Shown in pieces: positions 2,992 to 16,188 of a stretch of DNA of 16,188 nt (positions within the stretch are counted from its first letter, which is position 1; each line of letters begins with the position of its first letter). A model generated the notes under the pieces. It was not told where the DNA came from. It did not search any database and was given only the letters and a program-made list of their open reading frames with translations. The stretch comes from a virus (Duplodnaviria; Heunggongvirae; Uroviricota; Caudoviricetes). Both the position numbers and the translations under genes were made by a program. The stretch lies in the IMG/VR virus record IMGVR_UViG_2740892005_000001, one strand, 5' to 3'.

Positions 2992-3383
2992 AACATACAG
3001 AACTCCGTGCAGCCGTACTGGATGCACTGGAAAAACATGACACCGGGGCGACGCTTTTTGATGGTCGCCCCGCTGTTTTTGATGAGGAGGATTTTCCGGC
3101 AGTTGCCGTTTATCTCACCGGCGCTGAATACACGGGCGAAGAGCTGGACAGCGATACCTGGCAGGCGGAGCTGCATATTGAAGTTTTCCTGCCTGCTCAG
3201 GTGCCGGATTCAGAGCTGGATTCGTGGATGGAGTCCCGGATTTATCCGGTGATGAGCGATGTCCCGGCACTGTCAGATTTGATCACCAGTATGGTGGCCA
3301 GTGGCTATGACTACCGGCGCGACGATGATGCGGGCCTGTGGAGTTCAGCCGATCTGACTTATGTCATTACCTATGAAATGTGA
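2988..3383 (+). CDS. U: Tail terminator protein gpU
   Basis: 131 aa, [45 protein letters not shown]..., matching lambda gpU. The start overlaps the Z stop as ATGA. Confidence 0.94.
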
Positions 3384-4146: not shown

Positions 4147-4569
4147 ATGTTCCTGAAAACCGAATCATTTGAATATAACGGCGTGACCGTCACGCTTTCT
4201 GAACTGTCAGCCCTGCAGCGTATTGAGCATCTTGCCCTGATGAAACGGCAGGCAGAACCGGCGGGATCCGACAGCAACCGGCAGGTTACTGTGGAAGACG
4301 TCATCAGAACCGGCGCGTTTCTGGTGGCGATGTCCCTGTGGCATAACCATCCGAAGAAGACGCAGATGCCGTCCATGAATGAAGCCGTTAAACAGATTGA
4401 GCAGGAAGTGCTTACCACCTGGCCCACAGAGGCAATTTCTCATGCTGAAAACGTGGTGTACCGGCTGTCCGGTATGTATGAGTTTGTGGTGAATAATGCC
4501 CCCGAACAGGCAGAGGACGCCGGGCCTGCAGAGCCTGTTTCTGCGGGAAAGTGTTCGACGGTGAGCTGA
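4147..4569 (+). CDS. G: Tail assembly chaperone gpG
   Basis: 140 aa, MFLKTESFEYNGVTVTLSELSALQRIEHLALMKRQAEP...SAGKCSTVS, matching lambda gpG. GGAGAG RBS upstream. Confidence 0.94.
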   Translation: MFLKTESFEYNGVTVTLSELSALQRIEHLALMKRQAEPAGSDSNRQVTVEDVIRTGAFLVAMSLWHNHPKKTQMPSMNEAVKQIEQEVLTTWPTEAISHAENVVYRLSGMYEFVVNNAPEQAEDAGPAEPVSAGKCSTVS

Positions 4570-9910: not shown

Positions 9911-12900
9911 ATGGGTAAAGGCAGCAGTAAGGGGCATACCCCGCGCGAAGCGAAGGACAACCTGAAGTCCACGCAGCTGCTGAGTGTGATCGATGCCATC
10001 AGCGAAGGGCCGGTTGAAGGTCCGGTGGATGGATTAAAAAGCGTGCTGCTGAACAGTACGCCGGTGCTGGACAGTGAGGGGAATACCAATATATCCGGCG
10101 TCACGGTGGTGTTCCGGGCCGGTGAGCAGGAGCAGTCACCGCCGGAGGGATTTGAATCCTCCGGCTCCGAGACGGTGCTGGGTACGGAAGTGAAATATGA
10201 CACGCCGATCACCCGGACCATCACGTCGGCAAACATCGACCGTCTGCGCTTTACCTTCGGTGTACAGGCACTGGTGGAAACCACCTCAAAGGGAGACAGG
10301 AATCCGTCGGAAGTTCGCCTGCTGGTTCAGATACAGCGTAACGGTGGCTGGGTGACGGAAAAAGACATCACCATTAAGGGCAAAACCACCTCGCAGTATC
10401 TGGCCTCGGTGGTGGTGGATAACCTGCCGCCGCGCCCGTTTAATATCCGGATGCGCAGGATGACGCCGGACAGCACCACAGACCAGCTGCTGAACAAAAC
10501 GCTCTGGTCGTCATACACCGAAATCATCGATGTGAAACAGTGCTACCCGAACACGGCACTGGTTGGCGTGCAGGTGGACTCGGAGCAGTTCGGCAGCCAG
10601 CAGGTGAGCCGTAATTATCATCTTCGCGGGCGCATTCTGCAGGTGCCGTCGAACTATAACCCGCAGACGCGGCAATACAGCGGTATCTGGGACGGAACGT
10701 TAAAACCGGCATACAGCAACAACATGGCCTGGTGTCTGTGGGATATGCTGACCCATCCGCGCTACGGCATGGGGAAACGTCTTGGTGCGGCGGATGTGGA
10801 TAAATGGGCGCTGTATGTCATCGGCCAGTACTGCGACCAGTCGGTGCCGGACGGCTTTGGCGGCACGGAGCCGCGCATTACCTGTAATGCGTACCTGACC
10901 ACACAGCGCAAGGCGTGGGATGTGCTCAGTGATTTCTGCTCGGCGATGCGCTGTATGCCGGTATGGAACGGGCAGACGCTGACGTTCGTGCAGGACCGAC
11001 CATCAGATAAGGTGTGGACCTATAACCGCAGTAATGTGGTGATGCCGGATGATGGCGCGCCGTTCCGCTACAGCTTCAGCGCCCTGAAGGACCGCCATAA
11101 TGCCGTTGAGGTGAACTGGATTGACCCGGATAACGGCTGGGAGACGGCGACAGAGCTCGTGGAGGATACGCAGGCCATTGCCCGTTACGGCCGTAACGTC
11201 ACGAAGATGGATGCCTTTGGCTGTACCAGCCGGGGGCAGGCACACCGCGCCGGGCTGTGGCTGATTAAAACGGAGCTGCTGGAAACGCAGACCGTGGACT
11301 TCAGCGTGGGTGCTGAAGGGCTTCGCCATGTACCGGGGGATGTCATTGAAATCTGCGATGATGACTATGCCGGTATCAGCACCGGTGGTCGTGTGCTGGC
11401 GGTGAACAGCCAGACCCGGACGCTGACGCTCGACCGTGAAATCACGCTGCCATCCTCCGGTACCACGCTGATAAGCCTGGTTGACGGAAGTGGCAATCCG
11501 GTCAGCGTGGAGGTTCAGTCCGTCACCGACGGCGTGAAGGTGAAAGTGAGCCGTGTTCCTGACGGTGTTGCTGAATACAGCGTATGGGGGCTGAAGCTGC
11601 CGACGCTGCGCCAGCGACTGTTCCGCTGCGTGAGTATCCGTGAAAACGACGACGGCACGTATGCCATCACCGCCGTGCAGCATGTGCCGGAAAAAGAGAC
11701 CATCGTGGATAACGGGGCGCACTTTGACGGCGAACAGAGTGGCACGGTGAATGGTGTCACGCCGCCCGCGGTGCAGCACCTGACCGCAGAAGTCACCGCA
11801 GACAGCGGGGAATATCAGGTGCTGGCGCGATGGGACACACCGAAGGTGGTGAAGGGGGTGAGCTTTATGCTTCGCCTGACCGTGGCAGCGGATGACGGCA
11901 GTGAGCGGCTGGTCAGCACGGCCAGGACGACGGAAACCACATACCGCTTCAGGCAACTGGCGCTGGGGAACTACAGGCTGACAGTCCGGGCGGTAAATGC
12001 GTGGGGGCAGCAGGGGGATCCGGCGTCGGTATCGTTCCGGATTGCCGCACCGGCAGCGCCATCGCGGATTGAGCTGACGCCGGGCTATTTTCAGATAACC
12101 GCAACGCCGCATCTTGCCGTTTATGATCCGACGGTACAGTTTGAGTTCTGGTTCTCGGAAAAGCGGATTGCGGATATCAGGCAGGTTGAAGCCAGCGCGC
12201 GTTATCTTGGTACGGCGCTGTACTGGATAGCCGCCAGTATCAATATCAAACCGGGCCATGATTATTATTTTTACATTCGCAGTGTGAACACCGTTGGCAA
12301 ATCGGCATTTGTGGAGGCTGTTGGCCAGCCGAGTGATGATGCATCCGGCTATCTGGATTTTTTCAAAGGAGAGATAGGGAAAACCCATCTGGCTCAGGAG
12401 TTGTGGACGCAGATTGATAACGGTCAGCTTGCGCCTGACCTGGCTGAAATCAGGACGTCCATTACGGATGTCAGCAATGAAATCACGCAGACCGTCAATA
12501 AGAAACTGGAAGACCAGAGTGCAGCGATCCAGCAGATACAGAAGGTTCAGGTTGATACAAATAATAACCTGAACAGCATGTGGGCTGTGAAGCTGCAGCA
12601 GATGCAGGACGGACGCCTTTATATCGCGGGTATTGGTGCCGGTATTGAGAATACCCCTGACGGTATGCAGAGTCAGGTGCTGCTGGCGGCGGACAGGATT
12701 GCGATGATTAATCCTGCGAATGGCAATACAAAGCCGATGTTTGTTGGGCAGGGCGATCAGATATTCATGAACGAAGTGTTCCTGAAATATCTGACGGCTC
12801 CCACCATTACCAGCGGTGGCAATCCCCCAACGTTTTCACTGACACCTGATGGTCGACTTTCTGCGAGAAATGCGGATATCAGCGGTAACGTGAATGCGAA

Positions 12901-13393
12901 CTCCGGGACGCTCAATAATGTCACGATTAACCAGAACTGTCGGATTCTGGGAAAACTGTCAGCTAACCAGATTGAAGGTGATATTGTCAAAACGGTGGGA
13001 AAAGCCTTTCCGAGAAATGGCAGTTATGCCAGCGGTACAATAACGGTCACTGTGTACGATGACCAGGCTTTTGACCGTCAGATAGTCGTCCCCCCCGTTC
13101 TGTTTCGCGGTGGTAAGCATGAAAACTTCAACAGCAACAACCAACAGTCATACTGGTATTCAACCTGTAAGCTGCAGGTGCTGAAGAACGGACAGGAAAT
13201 CTTTCAGCAACCCGCGACGGATGTCAGCAGGGTATTTTCATCAGTCATTGATATGCCTGCCGGACACGGCCATGTCACCCTGACTTTCAATGTTTCTTCA
13301 TATGGTGCAAATAACTGGACGCCAACGACCAGTATCAGCGACCTTCTTGTTGTCGTGATGAAGAAATCAACAGCCGGCATCAGTATCAGTTGA
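9911..13393 (+). CDS. J: Central tail fibre / host specificity protein gpJ (1160 aa), with an apparently divergent C-terminal receptor-binding region
   Basis: N-terminus [34 protein letters not shown]... and the first ~800 residues match lambda gpJ as I recall it, including the fibronectin-III-like central region. Lambda gpJ is 1132 aa and this ORF is 1160 aa. The final ~300 residues (from about ...[29 protein letters not shown]... to ...[16 protein letters not shown]) do not match my memory of lambda J. Confidence 0.93.
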
Positions 13394-13410
13394 ATTTTAA
13401 AACCCAAATT

Positions 13411-13440
13411 CGGGCACCAGAAATGGTGCCTTTTTTATTT
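13411..13440 (+). terminator. Rho-independent terminator-like hairpin immediately downstream of J
   Basis: CGGGCACC-AGAAAT-GGTGCC followed by TTTTTTATTT: a perfect 6-7 bp GC-rich stem with a U-tract, 18 nt after the J stop and about 12 nt before the stf start. Confidence 0.55.
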
Positions 13441-13451
13441 GTGGAGTGAAT

Positions 13452-15473
13452 ATGGCAGTACAGATTTCAGGTGTGCTGAAAGACGGTGCAGGAAAACCGA
13501 TACAGAACTGCACCATTCAGCTCAAAGCAAAACGTAACAGCACCACAGTTGTGGTGAACACGGTGGCCTCAGAAAATCCGGATGAAGCCGGACGTTACAG
13601 CATGGATGTTGAGTATGGCCAGTACAGCGTCGCCCTGCTGGTTGAAGGTTTTCCGCCTTCACATGCCGGGACCATCACCGTGTATGAGGATTCTAAGCCG
13701 GGGACATTGAATGATTTTCTGGGCGCTGCAACAGAAGATGATGTTTGTCCGGAGGCACTGTATCGTTTTGAAAAGATGGTGGAAGAGGCGGCACGCAACG
13801 CTGAAGCCGCCTCTCAGAGCGCAGCGGCAGCAAAGAAATCAGAAACAGCAGCGGCATCGTCCAGGAACGCGGCGAAAACATCAGAGACGAATGCAGGTAA
13901 CAGCGCGAAAGCGGCAGCTTCTTCAAAAACAGCCGCACAAAACGCAGCAACAGCGGCAGAACGTTCAGAGACAAATGCCCGTGCGTCAGAAGAAGCCTCC
14001 GCAGACAGTGAAGAGGCTTCCCGCCGTAATGCAGAGTCAGCCGCTGAAAATGCCGGAGTCGCCACCACAAAAGCGCGGGAGGCCGCAGCAGACGCAACAA
14101 AGGCCGGGCAGAAAAAGGATGAGGCTCTGTCGGCAGCGACACGAGCTGAAAAGGCGGCAGACCGCGCAGAAGCCGCAGCGGAAGTGACTGCAGAGCCCTG
14201 TGCGAATATAGTGCCGCCGCTGCCTGATGTGTGGATACCGTTTAACGATTCACTGGATATGATTACGGGTTTTTCGCCATCTTATAAAAAGATAGTTATT
14301 GGTGACGATGAAATAACAATGCCAGGCGACAAGATTGTTAAGTTTAAACGTGCTTCAACAGCAACGTATATTAATAAGTCCGGCCAACTCAAGCTTGCTG
14401 AAGTTGACGAACCGCGATTTGAGCGCGATGGCTTATTGATTGAAGGACAGAGGACAAATTATCTGAGGAACTCAAATAAACCAGACTCATGGACTGTTCA
14501 TTCCGCACTGAATAAAACATTTGGCACTGATAAACAGGGGTTCAATTATGCCACGGTGACACCCACGGAAAGTATAGTGGGAACAACAGGTGGCTATACT
14601 GTGCATGGTGTGGTTGCAGCAGACAGATTCCCGCTGGCAAGTGGTGAATGTTTCACTTTTTCGTGCCGGGTTAAAGGCGCTAAAGCACGATGCAGGTTAA
14701 GAGTTTCAGTTATTATTGGTGGAACAGATACCTTCTCTGCTGACTCTTATCTTGATCTGGATACCCGGATCGCAACAGTAAGCGGTAATACATCCCTTAT
14801 AACAGCCAAAGCTGAACAACAGGGCGAGTGGACCTACTATGAGGCCACTTATACAGCTAATACGGACATTGATACCGTTAACTGTGCTTTTTATATGACA
14901 AATAAAATAAGTAATGAGACATTCTATGATGACTCAACATTAACCATGACGACGCCGCAAATTGAACTGGGCAATACGGCATCGTCATTTATTGTAACTA
15001 CAATGCCAACAACACGCGCAAGTGATGTAGTTACTATCCCATCGCAGAATAACCTGTCAACACGGCCTTTTACGGTATTGTGCGAAGTAAGCAGGAACTG
15101 GAGTACACCGCCCAATGTTGCGCCAAGGATATTTGATGTTGGAGGGCACAGTATTGATGATAATTATTTATCGCTGGGGTTTGTTGCAACAGGAAAGATA
15201 AGCGCCAACGTAGGAATGGTTCAGCCACAAATTGCCTCAGATGGAGAAAGGTTCATTGTGGGTGTGAGAGCTAAATCTGATTTATCAGTAAATGCAATAT
15301 GCAATGGTAATTATACAACAAACCTTAATGGTAAAATATTTGGAGTTACAGCAACATCGTACCGGTTTGGTGGGCAGACCGCAGCAGGAACGCGTCATTT
15401 GTTTGGACACATCAGAAATTTCAGAGTCTGGTTTAAAGAATTAAATGACAGGCAAATCAAGGAGGCAGTATGA
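13452..15473 (+). CDS. stf: Side tail fibre protein (Stf-like), chimeric: lambda-Stf-like N-terminus, Ala/Ser-rich repeat shaft, unrelated AT-rich C-terminal domain
   Basis: ATG at 13452 with GGAG 5 nt upstream. N-terminus MAVQISGVLKDGAGKPIQNCTIQLKAKRNSTTVVVNTVASENPDEAGRYSMDVEYGQYSV... closely resembles the lambda Stf (orf-401) N-terminus, followed by an A/S/E/T/N-rich repetitive segment. From about residue 250 (nt ~14200) the sequence and base composition change to a domain I cannot place. 673 aa in total. Confidence 0.85.
   Translation: MAVQISGVLKDGAGKPIQNCTIQLKAKRNSTTVVVNTVASENPDEAGRYSMDVEYGQYSVALLVEGFPPSHAGTITVYEDSKPGTLNDFLGAATEDDVCPEALYRFEKMVEEAARNAEAASQSAAAAKKSETAAASSRNAAKTSETNAGNSAKAAASSKTAAQNAATAAERSETNARASEEASADSEEASRRNAESAAENAGVATTKAREAAADATKAGQKKDEALSAATRAEKAADRAEAAAEVTAEPCANIVPPLPDVWIPFNDSLDMITGFSPSYKKIVIGDDEITMPGDKIVKFKRASTATYINKSGQLKLAEVDEPRFERDGLLIEGQRTNYLRNSNKPDSWTVHSALNKTFGTDKQGFNYATVTPTESIVGTTGGYTVHGVVAADRFPLASGECFTFSCRVKGAKARCRLRVSVIIGGTDTFSADSYLDLDTRIATVSGNTSLITAKAEQQGEWTYYEATYTANTDIDTVNCAFYMTNKISNETFYDDSTLTMTTPQIELGNTASSFIVTTMPTTRASDVVTIPSQNNLSTRPFTVLCEVSRNWSTPPNVAPRIFDVGGHSIDDNYLSLGFVATGKISANVGMVQPQIASDGERFIVGVRAKSDLSVNAICNGNYTTNLNGKIFGVTATSYRFGGQTAAGTRHLFGHIRNFRVWFKELNDRQIKEAV
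13780..14190 (+). repeat. Degenerate in-frame tandem repeats encoding the Ala/Ser/Glu-rich fibre shaft of Stf
   Basis: Recurring protein motifs of about 14 residues (SETAAASSRNAAKT / SETNAGNSAKAAAS / SKTAAQNAATAAER / SETNARASEEASAD ...), with GCN/GCA-rich nucleotide sequence. These repeats explain the spurious long ORFs in the other frames here (13711..14187 + and 13693..14142 -). Confidence 0.5.
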
Positions 15474-15748
15474 AAGATTTAACTTTGAAATTTCCTGGTA
15501 ACAGAGAGTTTAAATCCTTCCTGTCATCTCTTGACTGGGAGGAGGATGAAGACCTCCAGAATAAACTGTTAGTCGATGAAATTGGTTTCACCTACACAGA
15601 AACAGGGGTAACAGAAGAGGGAGAACCTGTCTGTGTCCGGAATGACGGTTATTTTGTCAACATTCGCATTCTTGATGACTTGTTTGATGTTTCTGTATTC
15701 TCTGATTATGTCGTGGAGCTGGAAACACCGCTTCGGGAATGGAGCTGA
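15470..15748 (+). CDS. Hypothetical small acidic protein (92 aa), translationally coupled to stf; possible fibre-tip chaperone or accessory protein
   Basis: ATG at 15470 overlaps the stf stop (ATGA) and has a strong RBS AAGGAGG 4-5 nt upstream. Product MKDLTLKFPGNREFKSFLSSLDWEEDEDLQNKLLVDEIGF... is rich in D/E. It has no resemblance to lambda Tfa that I can see. AT-rich like the stf 3' part. Confidence 0.6.
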   Translation: MKDLTLKFPGNREFKSFLSSLDWEEDEDLQNKLLVDEIGFTYTETGVTEEGEPVCVRNDGYFVNIRILDDLFDVSVFSDYVVELETPLREWS

Positions 15749-15760
15749 AAGGAGGAAATA

Positions 15761-16054
15761 ATGGATATAAGCCCCTTACTTCATGCACTTTGTGCTGTGG
15801 CTGCGCAGATACTGGTTGGTCTTTTTACCGGAAACTGGGCTTACGGAGCGATAGCCGGTTGTACGTTCTTCATTGCGCGTGAACATACCCAGGCAGAATA
15901 TCGCTGGATTGAAATGTTCGGGCATGGCAAGCGAATGAATATGCCGTGGTGGGGCGGTTTTGATCCGCGAGCTTGGGATGTGGCAAGCCTGATGGATTTT
16001 GCTGTGCCGGTGGTGGCGTGTCTGCTGGTCTGGCTGTTGGTTAATCGTGGGTGA
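15761..16054 (+). CDS. Hypothetical small membrane protein (97 aa, two predicted hydrophobic helices)
   Basis: Very strong RBS AAAGGAGG about 6 nt upstream of ATG 15761. Product has an N-terminal hydrophobic stretch (LLHALCAVAAQILVGLFTGNWAYGAIAGCTFFIA), a Trp/charge-rich middle (EYRWIEMFGHGKRMNMPWWGGFDPRAWD) and a C-terminal hydrophobic stretch (FAVPVVACLLVWLLV). Not recognised as any lambda late protein. Confidence 0.6.
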   Translation: MDISPLLHALCAVAAQILVGLFTGNWAYGAIAGCTFFIAREHTQAEYRWIEMFGHGKRMNMPWWGGFDPRAWDVASLMDFAVPVVACLLVWLLVNRG

Positions 16055-16071: not shown

Positions 16072-16188
16072 ATGCAACGGAGGAAGAAACCCCGTTGCTG
16101 GAAGCCAGGAAAAAGTATGAAGTGGTTTACTGAATTTGGCCACCTGAACAGAGGTGATATGCTCACCTCAGAACAACACAGGTGCCAT
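16072..16188 (+). CDS. Possible 5' end of a further ORF running off the window (basic N-terminus MQRRKKPRCWKPGKSMKWFTEFGH...)
   Basis: ATG at 16072 with AAGGTGAG about 6 nt upstream; open to the window end (39 codons). Too short and truncated to call with confidence. Confidence 0.3.
   Translation, partial: MQRRKKPRCWKPGKSMKWFTEFGHLNRGDMLTSEQHRCH

Follow-up and report, generated by a model that had tools for sequence, protein, structure and literature searches.

The divergent C-terminal end of the J protein in this DNA is not a new type: its sequence identifies the shaft, fibre and receptor-binding module as the phage 21 allele, which has already been sequenced, named, structurally modelled and experimentally characterized. 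The window (the whole 16,188-nucleotide stretch that was analysed) matches the sitABCD prophage integrated at icd in ST131 with 100% identity. Its J protein very likely consists of a lambda-like hub carrying an exchangeable 21-type module, with LamB as the receptor by homology with phage 21. The value as a discovery is small, since the allele is known, characterized and common. However, the result corrects a rule of thumb, because divergence at the receptor end of a lambdoid J does not equal a change of receptor.

Domain organization of gene J

Gene J (9911–13,393, + strand) is intact and encodes 1160 residues according to the open reading frame list and its translation, and we take its product to be the tip attachment or central tail fibre protein. 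In a profile search all six Pfam families of J scored above the cut-off, with E-values from 3.7e-31 to 3.3e-43. They form the complete series in canonical order (Phage-tail_3, FNIII-A_GpJ, Ig_J, Ig_J_second, Phage_Tail_Tip and Ig_GpJ_C), which places the protein among the lambdoid gpJ proteins. The gene lies 3′ of H-M-L-K-I and 5′ of the side tail fibre gene, the order found in the annotations of lambda, phage 21 and PhiR47_2.

The N-terminal 805 residues (9911–12,325, + strand) comprise the hub domains and two FNIII/Ig domains and are lambda-like. They are followed by an α-helical shaft of phage 21 type at residues ~807–889 (12,329–12,577, + strand), in which 81 of 83 residues are identical to phage 21 and 24 of 55 aligned residues to lambda. 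A single-sequence AF2 model of the shaft predicts a helix at 811–836 and, after a break at 837–841, a long helix that starts at 842; pLDDT is above 90 at ~850–900. The central straight fibre, a β-prism, occupies residues ~890–1025 (12,578–12,985, + strand) and matches phage 21 at 134 and lambda at 95 of its 136 residues (70%). The Ig-like receptor-binding domain, residues 1026–1160 (12,986–13,390, + strand), is identical to that of phage 21 at all 135 positions. As the sequence-only reading had assumed, the segment that diverges from lambda is the receptor-recognition end of J: the tail tip fibre family PF09327 covers residues 872–1000, and PF12421, the C-terminal receptor-binding domain, covers residues 1038–1160 (E = 1.6e-37). 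Rfam and repeat scans of the J region gave no relevant match, and antisense reading frames within J, such as 11,003–12,388 (− strand), are regarded as unsupported.

Divergence from lambda J

The reference for lambda J was taken from NC_001416 (NP_040600.1, 1132 residues). In the pairwise alignment, residues 1–805 are identical to lambda J at 787 positions (97.8%) without a gap, and each 50-residue bin is 94–100% identical; the closeness of the N-terminal ~800 residues, noted in the sequence-only reading, is thus borne out. For residues 806–1160, there are 181 identities in 360 columns, or 50.3% with the 38 gap columns counted, and 56.2% over aligned residues. Since the C-terminal 300 residues fall clearly short of 90% identity to lambda on alignment, the C-terminal divergence stands. 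Its extent was drawn too narrowly by the sequence-only reading, which had placed it at 12,350–13,393 with ~300 residues: the break lies ~30 nt further to the left, and ~355 residues are involved.

DNA identity to lambda is 0.96 at 12,211–12,310, 0.70 at 12,311–12,410 and 0.19 at 12,411–12,510. Because identity collapses from 12,310 onward, where mismatches become dense, the left recombination breakpoint is placed at 12,310–12,330 (+ strand; residue ~806), on the border between the second FNIII domain and the shaft. The GC content changes at this point from ~0.60 to ~0.50. The lambda J shaft begins at residue 809 (PMC11101478), and the breakpoint coincides with this start. Upstream of it, each 100-nt bin of the DNA is 91–100% identical to lambda, and small patches are nearer to lambda or to phage 21.

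J is indeed 28 residues longer than lambda J, and the excess falls entirely within residues ~836–866 of the shaft, inside the long helix of the AF2 model. It appears as lambda gaps of 21 and 7 residues (836–856 and 860–866; 12,416–12,508, + strand), whose exact position varies with the alignment. The last 130 residues contain three further, small indels (+5, −4 and −1) with a net effect of zero. The divergence is patchy, and a conserved island in the fibre, residues 951–1000 (12,761–12,910, + strand), is still 86% identical to lambda. The receptor-binding domain is not of the lambda type (lambda residues ~998–1132), with 62 of 130 residues identical (47.7%) and the three indels. Lambda J otherwise shares the gene position, the domain order and a presumed trimeric mechanism with the J studied here.

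Lambda J structures are available (PDB 8iyk, 8xck and, with LamB, 8xcj). The solved chains closest to the receptor-binding domain are 9wca and 9wcb, followed by 8xcj and 8xck; our literature search did not find a paper describing 9wca/9wcb. From its 48% identity to the lambda J of the 8xcj complex, the domain is predicted to have the J receptor-binding fold. A single-sequence AlphaFold model of residues 1000–1160 has a moderate pLDDT of 58.7, and its Foldseek matches largely repeat the sequence similarity, with the same top matches. Because of this confidence, the model was not used to assign contact loops but only to place the three indels, which fall in loops predicted at this low confidence.

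Comparison with phage 21

We compared J with that of phage 21 (CPT_21_21, UMO75436.1, GenBank OL657228). Identity to phage 21 is 96.6% over the whole J DNA and 98.3% over the C-terminal 1068 nt. The last 360 residues are identical at 356 positions, and the four changes (D816, D853, I912 and R986 here; N, G, V and K in phage 21) lie in the shaft and fibre, all upstream of the receptor-binding domain. With the same length of 1160 residues, the same 28-residue longer shaft and the fully identical domain, the C-terminal end belongs to the phage 21-type allele. Of the 18 DNA differences in the C-terminal stretch, 14 are synonymous, including all eight in the receptor-binding domain, which indicates purifying selection.

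Other features are shared as well. I1025, at the end of the fibre (12,983–12,985, + strand), and V1026 are both kept, the OmpC-switch residue thus being in the ancestral form of a LamB specialist, and codon 1071 (GAA, 13,121–13,123, + strand) encodes glutamate as in GenBank phage 21. Phage 21 also has the sitABCD cargo and the icd integration found in the carrier genome of the prophage. The two differ elsewhere: the N-terminal 2.4 kb of J is a finer mosaic here than in phage 21 and in places nearer to lambda, and the head genes here are lambda-like, unlike those of phage 21.

Comparison with other J proteins

The closest relative is J of PhiR47_2 (XSB42920.1, PV340567), with 99.9% identical DNA, a 100% identical C-terminal module and no notable difference in J. 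The record of this viable isolated phage lists E. coli C as the host; our literature search found no receptor data on it. The infant-gut lambda-like phages 1H12 and the Lambda_ev series follow, with 97.7% identity in J DNA and 99.3% in the C-terminal module.

J of phage 434 (UMO75286.1) has the same architecture with a lambda-type shaft, and represents a natural swap of the receptor-binding domain alone. Its receptor is cited in the literature as OmpC (including PMC11101478). The present domain is not of this type, with 57 of 132 residues identical (43.2%). PhiR55_1 J (XSB43168.1) carries the 21-type shaft and fibre with three substitutions up to residue ~1004, scattered differences from ~1008 and full divergence past ~1035; its receptor-binding domain is of a third type, and lom comes next. 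This pattern therefore reveals a second natural breakpoint at the border between fibre and domain.

Receptor recognition

The native receptor of phage 21 is K-12 LamB, as for lambda, and a lamB knockout is not lysed (bioRxiv 10.1101/2023.04.13.536812; PMC11336670). A literature search for earlier evidence on this receptor found none beyond the Meyer-lab papers. Since every residue of the receptor-binding domain is the same as in phage 21, LamB is the most probable receptor of the J studied here. The divergence had been read as a sign of a different outer-membrane receptor; this is not supported, as the domain equals that of a LamB user and J keeps I1025. Nor does the divergence itself imply a receptor change, since the lambda domain is 48% identical, yet the experiments on phage 21 point to LamB for both.

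The phi21 stock used in these experiments carries G18903A relative to GenBank phage 21, giving E1071K (AAA, Lys; bioRxiv 10.1101/2023.04.13.536812). Codon 1071 is the sole position in the receptor-binding domain where the stock differs from both GenBank phage 21 and the present J, so the tested domain is identical to the latter at 134, not 135, of 135 residues. The LamB dependence proposed for this J is therefore drawn entirely from phage 21 experiments with an E1071K stock, and we infer that the virion of the prophage would behave like phage 21. Changes in the fibre region are known to shift the receptor range of phi21, and the four substitutions noted above lie in the fibre and shaft.

The closest domain of solved structure uses OmpC. 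It belongs to the A8 gpJ chimera (PDB 9wca, closed; 9wcb, with OmpC), which was selected on a lamB knockout and delivers DNA via OmpC. The A8 domain has equal loop lengths and is identical at 109 of 135 residues (80.7%), so the present domain is a sister allele of A8 and not the same OmpC-binding type. As A8 is an engineered fusion, its shaft and fibre are lambda-type; its domain nevertheless represents a natural allele, 98% identical to J of Stx1a-converting phages, and has the long loop and the C-terminal 30 residues in common with the 21-type domain. OmpC, alone or with LamB, might then be the natural receptor, with the LamB-only phenotype peculiar to the laboratory phi21 stock or to K-12. 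Also in line with this, phi21 acquired the ability to use OmpC in each of 12 replicate cultures, one change outside the domain being sufficient (bioRxiv 10.1101/2023.04.13.536812; PMC11336670), the OmpC-gain mutation being I1025T (PMC11336670), and the tested stock differs from the present J by E1071K in a loop. We consider this reading improbable: the phi21 ancestor was unable to lyse a lamB knockout in which OmpC remained (bioRxiv 10.1101/2023.04.13.536812), J keeps I1025, at which the change that opens the way to OmpC occurs, and 26 of the 135 domain residues differ from A8. Taken across the family, sequence distance fails to predict the receptor, as domains 48% identical both use LamB and one 81% identical uses OmpC. 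Receptor specificity is labile in the 21-type/A8 clade.

For the favoured reading, LamB use through a 21-type module, we propose the following mechanism, in which the lambda opening mechanism and the LamB dependence of phage 21 are taken from the literature and the breakpoint, domain map, identities and frequency from this analysis. Shaft, fibre and receptor-binding domain would form an exchangeable unit of lambdoid J, and past homologous recombination at the border of the second FNIII domain and the shaft has probably fused the 21-type module to the N-terminal hub of lambda type. Like its lambda homologue, J would act as a trimer, and the bottom loops of the three receptor-binding domains would engage an outer-membrane porin trimer. 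Binding would splay the domains, twist the fibre, flip the helical shaft and open the tail tip so that DNA can be ejected. The porin would be LamB although the contact loops are unlike those of lambda in sequence and length; the main text of PMC11101478 does not give residue numbers for the lambda LamB-contact loops L1–L4. OmpC use would be latent, a single substitution (I1025T) away. This likely entry route for the ST131 prophage, LamB with OmpC one mutation off, concerns lambda-based delivery particles or phages directed against ST131.

Frequency of the allele and LamB variation

The 21-type ending ranks among the most frequent ones of J in E. coli prophages. Its receptor-binding domain is present in ~20% of complete E. 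coli genomes, with about 1082 records at a DNA identity of at least 95%. LamB of the genome with the exact prophage differs from K-12 at eight residues, all at mature positions 383–395 in loop EL9, and its EL9 is also unlike the S. sonnei variant. This ST131-type EL9 allele, YTGSSSTNPYYGKAVS, occurs in 1104 of 5412 genomes, a count similar to that of the 21-type domain. Lambda J contacts LamB at three loops, EL9 among them, and one change in EL9 is enough to shift the binding kinetics. In addition, lambda failed to infect NC101, a strain with changes in the extracellular part of LamB and with a lambdoid prophage integrated at icd (PMC12803456).

These observations permit a tentative reading, the variant-LamB alternative of the sequence-only reading, in which the 21-type domain binds LamB but is fitted to natural EL9 variants, or tolerates them better, while the lambda domain deals with them differently; J and LamB alleles would be partners in a natural arms race. 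We regard it as rather unlikely. Phage 21, with an equivalent domain, uses K-12 LamB, so a LamB variant is not needed, and PhiR47_2, with the matching J, has E. coli C as its listed host; the similar counts may merely reflect many clonal ST131 genomes, and the authors of the NC101 study give other explanations for the failure of lambda (PMC12803456). Because the 21-type loops are unlike those of lambda in sequence and length, the domain could conceivably contact LamB differently and with another EL9 tolerance, with J and EL9 (or OmpC) alleles matched in wild E. coli, but we hold this to be doubtful. If true, the allele, which about one-fifth of sequenced E. coli carry, ST131 among them, would stand for a receptor specificity not resolved by work on K-12.

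Region downstream of J

The region 3′ of J is arranged as in phage 21. Lom, which follows J in lambda, is missing from both, and J is directly followed by a terminator-like hairpin with a T-run (13,412–13,441, + strand), annotated likewise as a terminator in phage 21. Adjoining J is the side tail fibre gene stf (13,446–15,473, + strand; 675 residues, with Pfam phage_tail_N at residues 3–133), which carries the annotation Stf in both PhiR47_2 and phage 21; its product is the second host-recognition protein.

The RefSeq annotation gives stf as two pseudogene pieces, and the window comes from a resident prophage, so that the divergent J end might be regarded as functionless decay in a defective prophage. 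We consider this extremely improbable, and it is contradicted by the intact 1160-residue reading frame, the complete Pfam domains, the identity to J of the isolated phage PhiR47_2 and the synonymous nature of all eight domain differences from phage 21. In the window, stf is also a single uninterrupted reading frame. Its distal half differs from phage 21 and matches only PhiR47_2 and the infant-gut lambda-like phages.

Structure of the divergent J C-terminus

The late operon in the window is of lambda type, in the order D, E, FI, FII, Z, U, V, G/T, H, M, L, K, I, J and stf, and its J gene (9911-13393), encoding the tail-tip attachment protein, is one intact ORF of 1160 aa. The G/T frameshift slippery sequence GGGAAAG lies at 4545-4551, the expected spot close to the end of G. 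Against lambda J (NC_001416), residues 1-805 align without gaps and are identical at 787 positions (97.8%), as a sequence-only reading had anticipated for the N-terminal ~800 residues. The same reading regarded the last ~300 residues as divergent; the divergence is real, but it extends over ~355 residues and contains an island (residues 951-1000) that is still 86% identical to lambda. Residues 806-1160 share 181 identities with lambda in 360 columns, which is 50.3% with the 38 gap columns counted and 56.2% over aligned residues. The reading was also right that J is 28 residues longer than in lambda: these residues all fall within ~836-866, and three small indels close to the C-terminal end cancel out. 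At the DNA level, identity to lambda in 100-nt bins falls from 0.96 at 12211-12310 to 0.70 in the next bin and then to 0.19, which places the breakpoint at nt ~12310-12330; GC content drops there from ~0.60 to ~0.50. Upstream, across J 9911-12310, some bins are nearer lambda (e.g. 11311-11710) and others nearer phage 21 (e.g. 11111-11310 and 11811-11910), an alternation that indicates fine-scale recombination among lambdoid J genes.

Pfam recovers the complete J domain series, in which residues 872-1000 belong to the tail-tip fibre family and residues 1038-1160 to the J C-terminal receptor-binding domain. In lambda J, cryo-EM shows FNIII-2 followed by the alpha-helical shaft (residues 809-861), the beta-prism central straight fibre and the Ig-like receptor-binding domain, which inserts its four bottom loops into LamB (PMC11101478). 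The breakpoint matches the border between FNIII-2 and shaft, and the shaft contains the 28 extra residues. When residues 801-910 are modelled with AlphaFold from the single sequence, one helix spans 811-836 and, after a short break, a long one begins at 842 (pLDDT >90 around 850-900). The model is compatible with a longer helical shaft than that of lambda, but because it treats a trimeric element as a monomer, this agreement is supportive only.

Identity with phage 21 and distribution of the module

The divergent end is the phage 21 allele of J, already known and experimentally characterized, in a common ST131 prophage. In DNA, J is 99.9% identical to its counterpart in Escherichia phage PhiR47_2 and 96.6% to that in phage 21, and the divergent 1068 nt are 100% and 98.3% identical, respectively. 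Over the last 360 residues there are four substitutions relative to phage 21 (D816, D853, I912 and R986 in the window; N, G, V and K in phage 21), all upstream of the receptor-binding domain, and residues 1026-1160 are identical at 135 of 135 positions. Non-functional decay of the divergent end would be a highly improbable explanation: 14 of the 18 DNA differences from phage 21 in this stretch, including all eight inside the receptor-binding domain, are synonymous, so the C-terminal module is under purifying selection.

Prophages of E. coli O25b:H4-ST131 and of related genomes match the whole window at 100% identity. In strain 4/1-1, sitABCD lies downstream and the prophage end adjoins an icd fragment, the phage 21 attachment site. 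D, E and FI, the head genes (1-2272), are ~97% identical to lambda and only ~67% identical or unmatched to phage 21, and from FII onward both phages match; thus, the prophage is a mosaic of lambda head and phage 21 tail tip, integrated in icd where phage 21 inserts and carrying sitABCD as cargo. Among 5,426 complete genomes, the 408 nt coding for the domain have matches of ≥99% identity in 471 records and of 95-99% in another 611. At ≥80% query coverage, 1,672 genomes have a nearly complete copy of the 21-type C-terminal module or of one of its relatives; the lambda module reaches that coverage in 95, the eight matches listed all being laboratory strains. Domains of sequenced phages fall into discrete classes at ~100, 90, 80, 60, 45 and 40% identity.

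Receptor prediction

We compared the window domain with those of J proteins with known receptors, covering LamB and OmpC users. Identity is 100% for phage 21 J (LamB), 81% for the J of A8 and the Stx1-phage type (OmpC), 48% for lambda J (LamB) and 43% for phage 434 J (OmpC). Across this family, sequence distance does not track the receptor, so that divergence by itself permits no conclusion on the receptor; the earlier proposal of a different outer-membrane receptor is not supported, since the domain is that of phage 21 and LamB is the best call. The phage 21 ancestor could not lyse lamB-knockout cells, and under coevolution it gained the use of OmpC and later of OmpF (bioRxiv 10.1101/2023.04.13.536812; PMC11336670). 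The window J keeps V1026 and also I1025, whose change to Thr adds OmpC use in phage 21 (PMC11336670). From the phage 21 evidence and these retained residues, the best-supported prediction is LamB as the receptor, as in lambda, with OmpC use latent.

Natural OmpC use appears improbable, although two observations point to it. First, the closest solved structure to the window domain is not that of lambda but 'A8 gpJ 713', available in the closed state (PDB 9wca) and in the open state with EDL933 OmpC (9wcb). A8, a chimera engineered from lambda J and screened on a lamB knockout, delivers DNA via OmpC (bioRxiv 10.1101/2022.09.30.509847); its domain is 80.7% identical to that of the window and 98% to J as it occurs naturally in Stx1a-converting phages. 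Second, the tested phage 21 stock differs from GenBank phage 21 by G18903A (bioRxiv 10.1101/2023.04.13.536812), which maps to J codon 1071 (Glu to Lys) within the receptor-binding domain, where the window has Glu, as in GenBank.

Compatible with LamB as the receptor is a tuning of the domain to variants of the LamB extracellular loop EL9, a tentative idea that we consider rather less likely than not to hold. AR_0081, a genome with exactly this prophage, has a LamB identical to that of K-12 at 438 of 446 positions, and all eight differences cluster at precursor residues 408-420 (mature 383-395), which form EL9. The loop reads YTGNADNNANFGKAVP in K-12, YTGSSSTNPYYGKAVS in the carrier of this prophage (NZ_CP027534 lamB) and YNGDSKVNPNYGKAVP in S. 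sonnei; the carrier allele also differs from the S. sonnei 3070 variant used in the lambda-LamB structure. EL9 is one of three LamB loops contacting lambda J, and A384S alone leads to irreversible binding (PMC11101478). The carrier allele occurs in 1104 of 5412 complete E. coli genomes, alongside several further EL9 alleles. However, phage 21 works on K-12 LamB, and similar genome counts may reflect ST131 clonality only. The EL9 evidence for a variant LamB, the other option of the sequence-only reading, is circumstantial.

Exchange points and the region downstream of J

The block replaced relative to lambda spans ~12320 to 13434 and comprises the J C-terminus and intergenic region in place of the lambda J end and lom; lambda similarity returns in the stf N-terminus. 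Several phages match the window J only as far as J nucleotide ~3036-3101. The J of PhiR55_1 (PV340571, 3101-4177) has the 21-type shaft and fibre with three substitutions up to residue ~1004, scattered differences from ~1008 and full divergence past ~1035, where it carries a third type of receptor-binding domain, followed by lom. These matches show a second natural breakpoint, at the fibre/domain border. Phage 434 J is the converse of PhiR55_1, joining a lambda-type shaft and fibre to its own receptor-binding domain. The conserved island at 951-1000 lies shortly before this junction and could provide homology for such exchanges.

In contrast to lambda and phage 434, lom is absent between J and stf (13394-13445); the 52-nt gap holds a terminator-like hairpin (13412-13431), and phage 21 is arranged alike. 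The stf gene (13446-15473) is one uninterrupted 675-aa ORF in the window, and RefSeq splits the same DNA in strain 4/1-1 into two pseudogene fragments, 'tail fiber N-terminal domain' and 'head spike fiber domain'. Its distal half (~14460-15360, GC ~0.43) is unlike phage 21 and matches only PhiR47_2 and infant-gut lambda-like phages. Two small ORFs follow at the position of lambda tfa, 15470-15748 (92 aa), whose overlap with the stf stop would suit a chaperone gene, and 15761-16054 (97 aa). Neither has a Pfam match; both are kept in phage 21, annotated there as a hypothetical protein and a putative membrane protein. Finally, 46 nt at 16073-16118 match lambda 22437-22482, close to where the lambda tail fibre assembly gene ends, at 91% identity and are likely a remnant or recombination scar.
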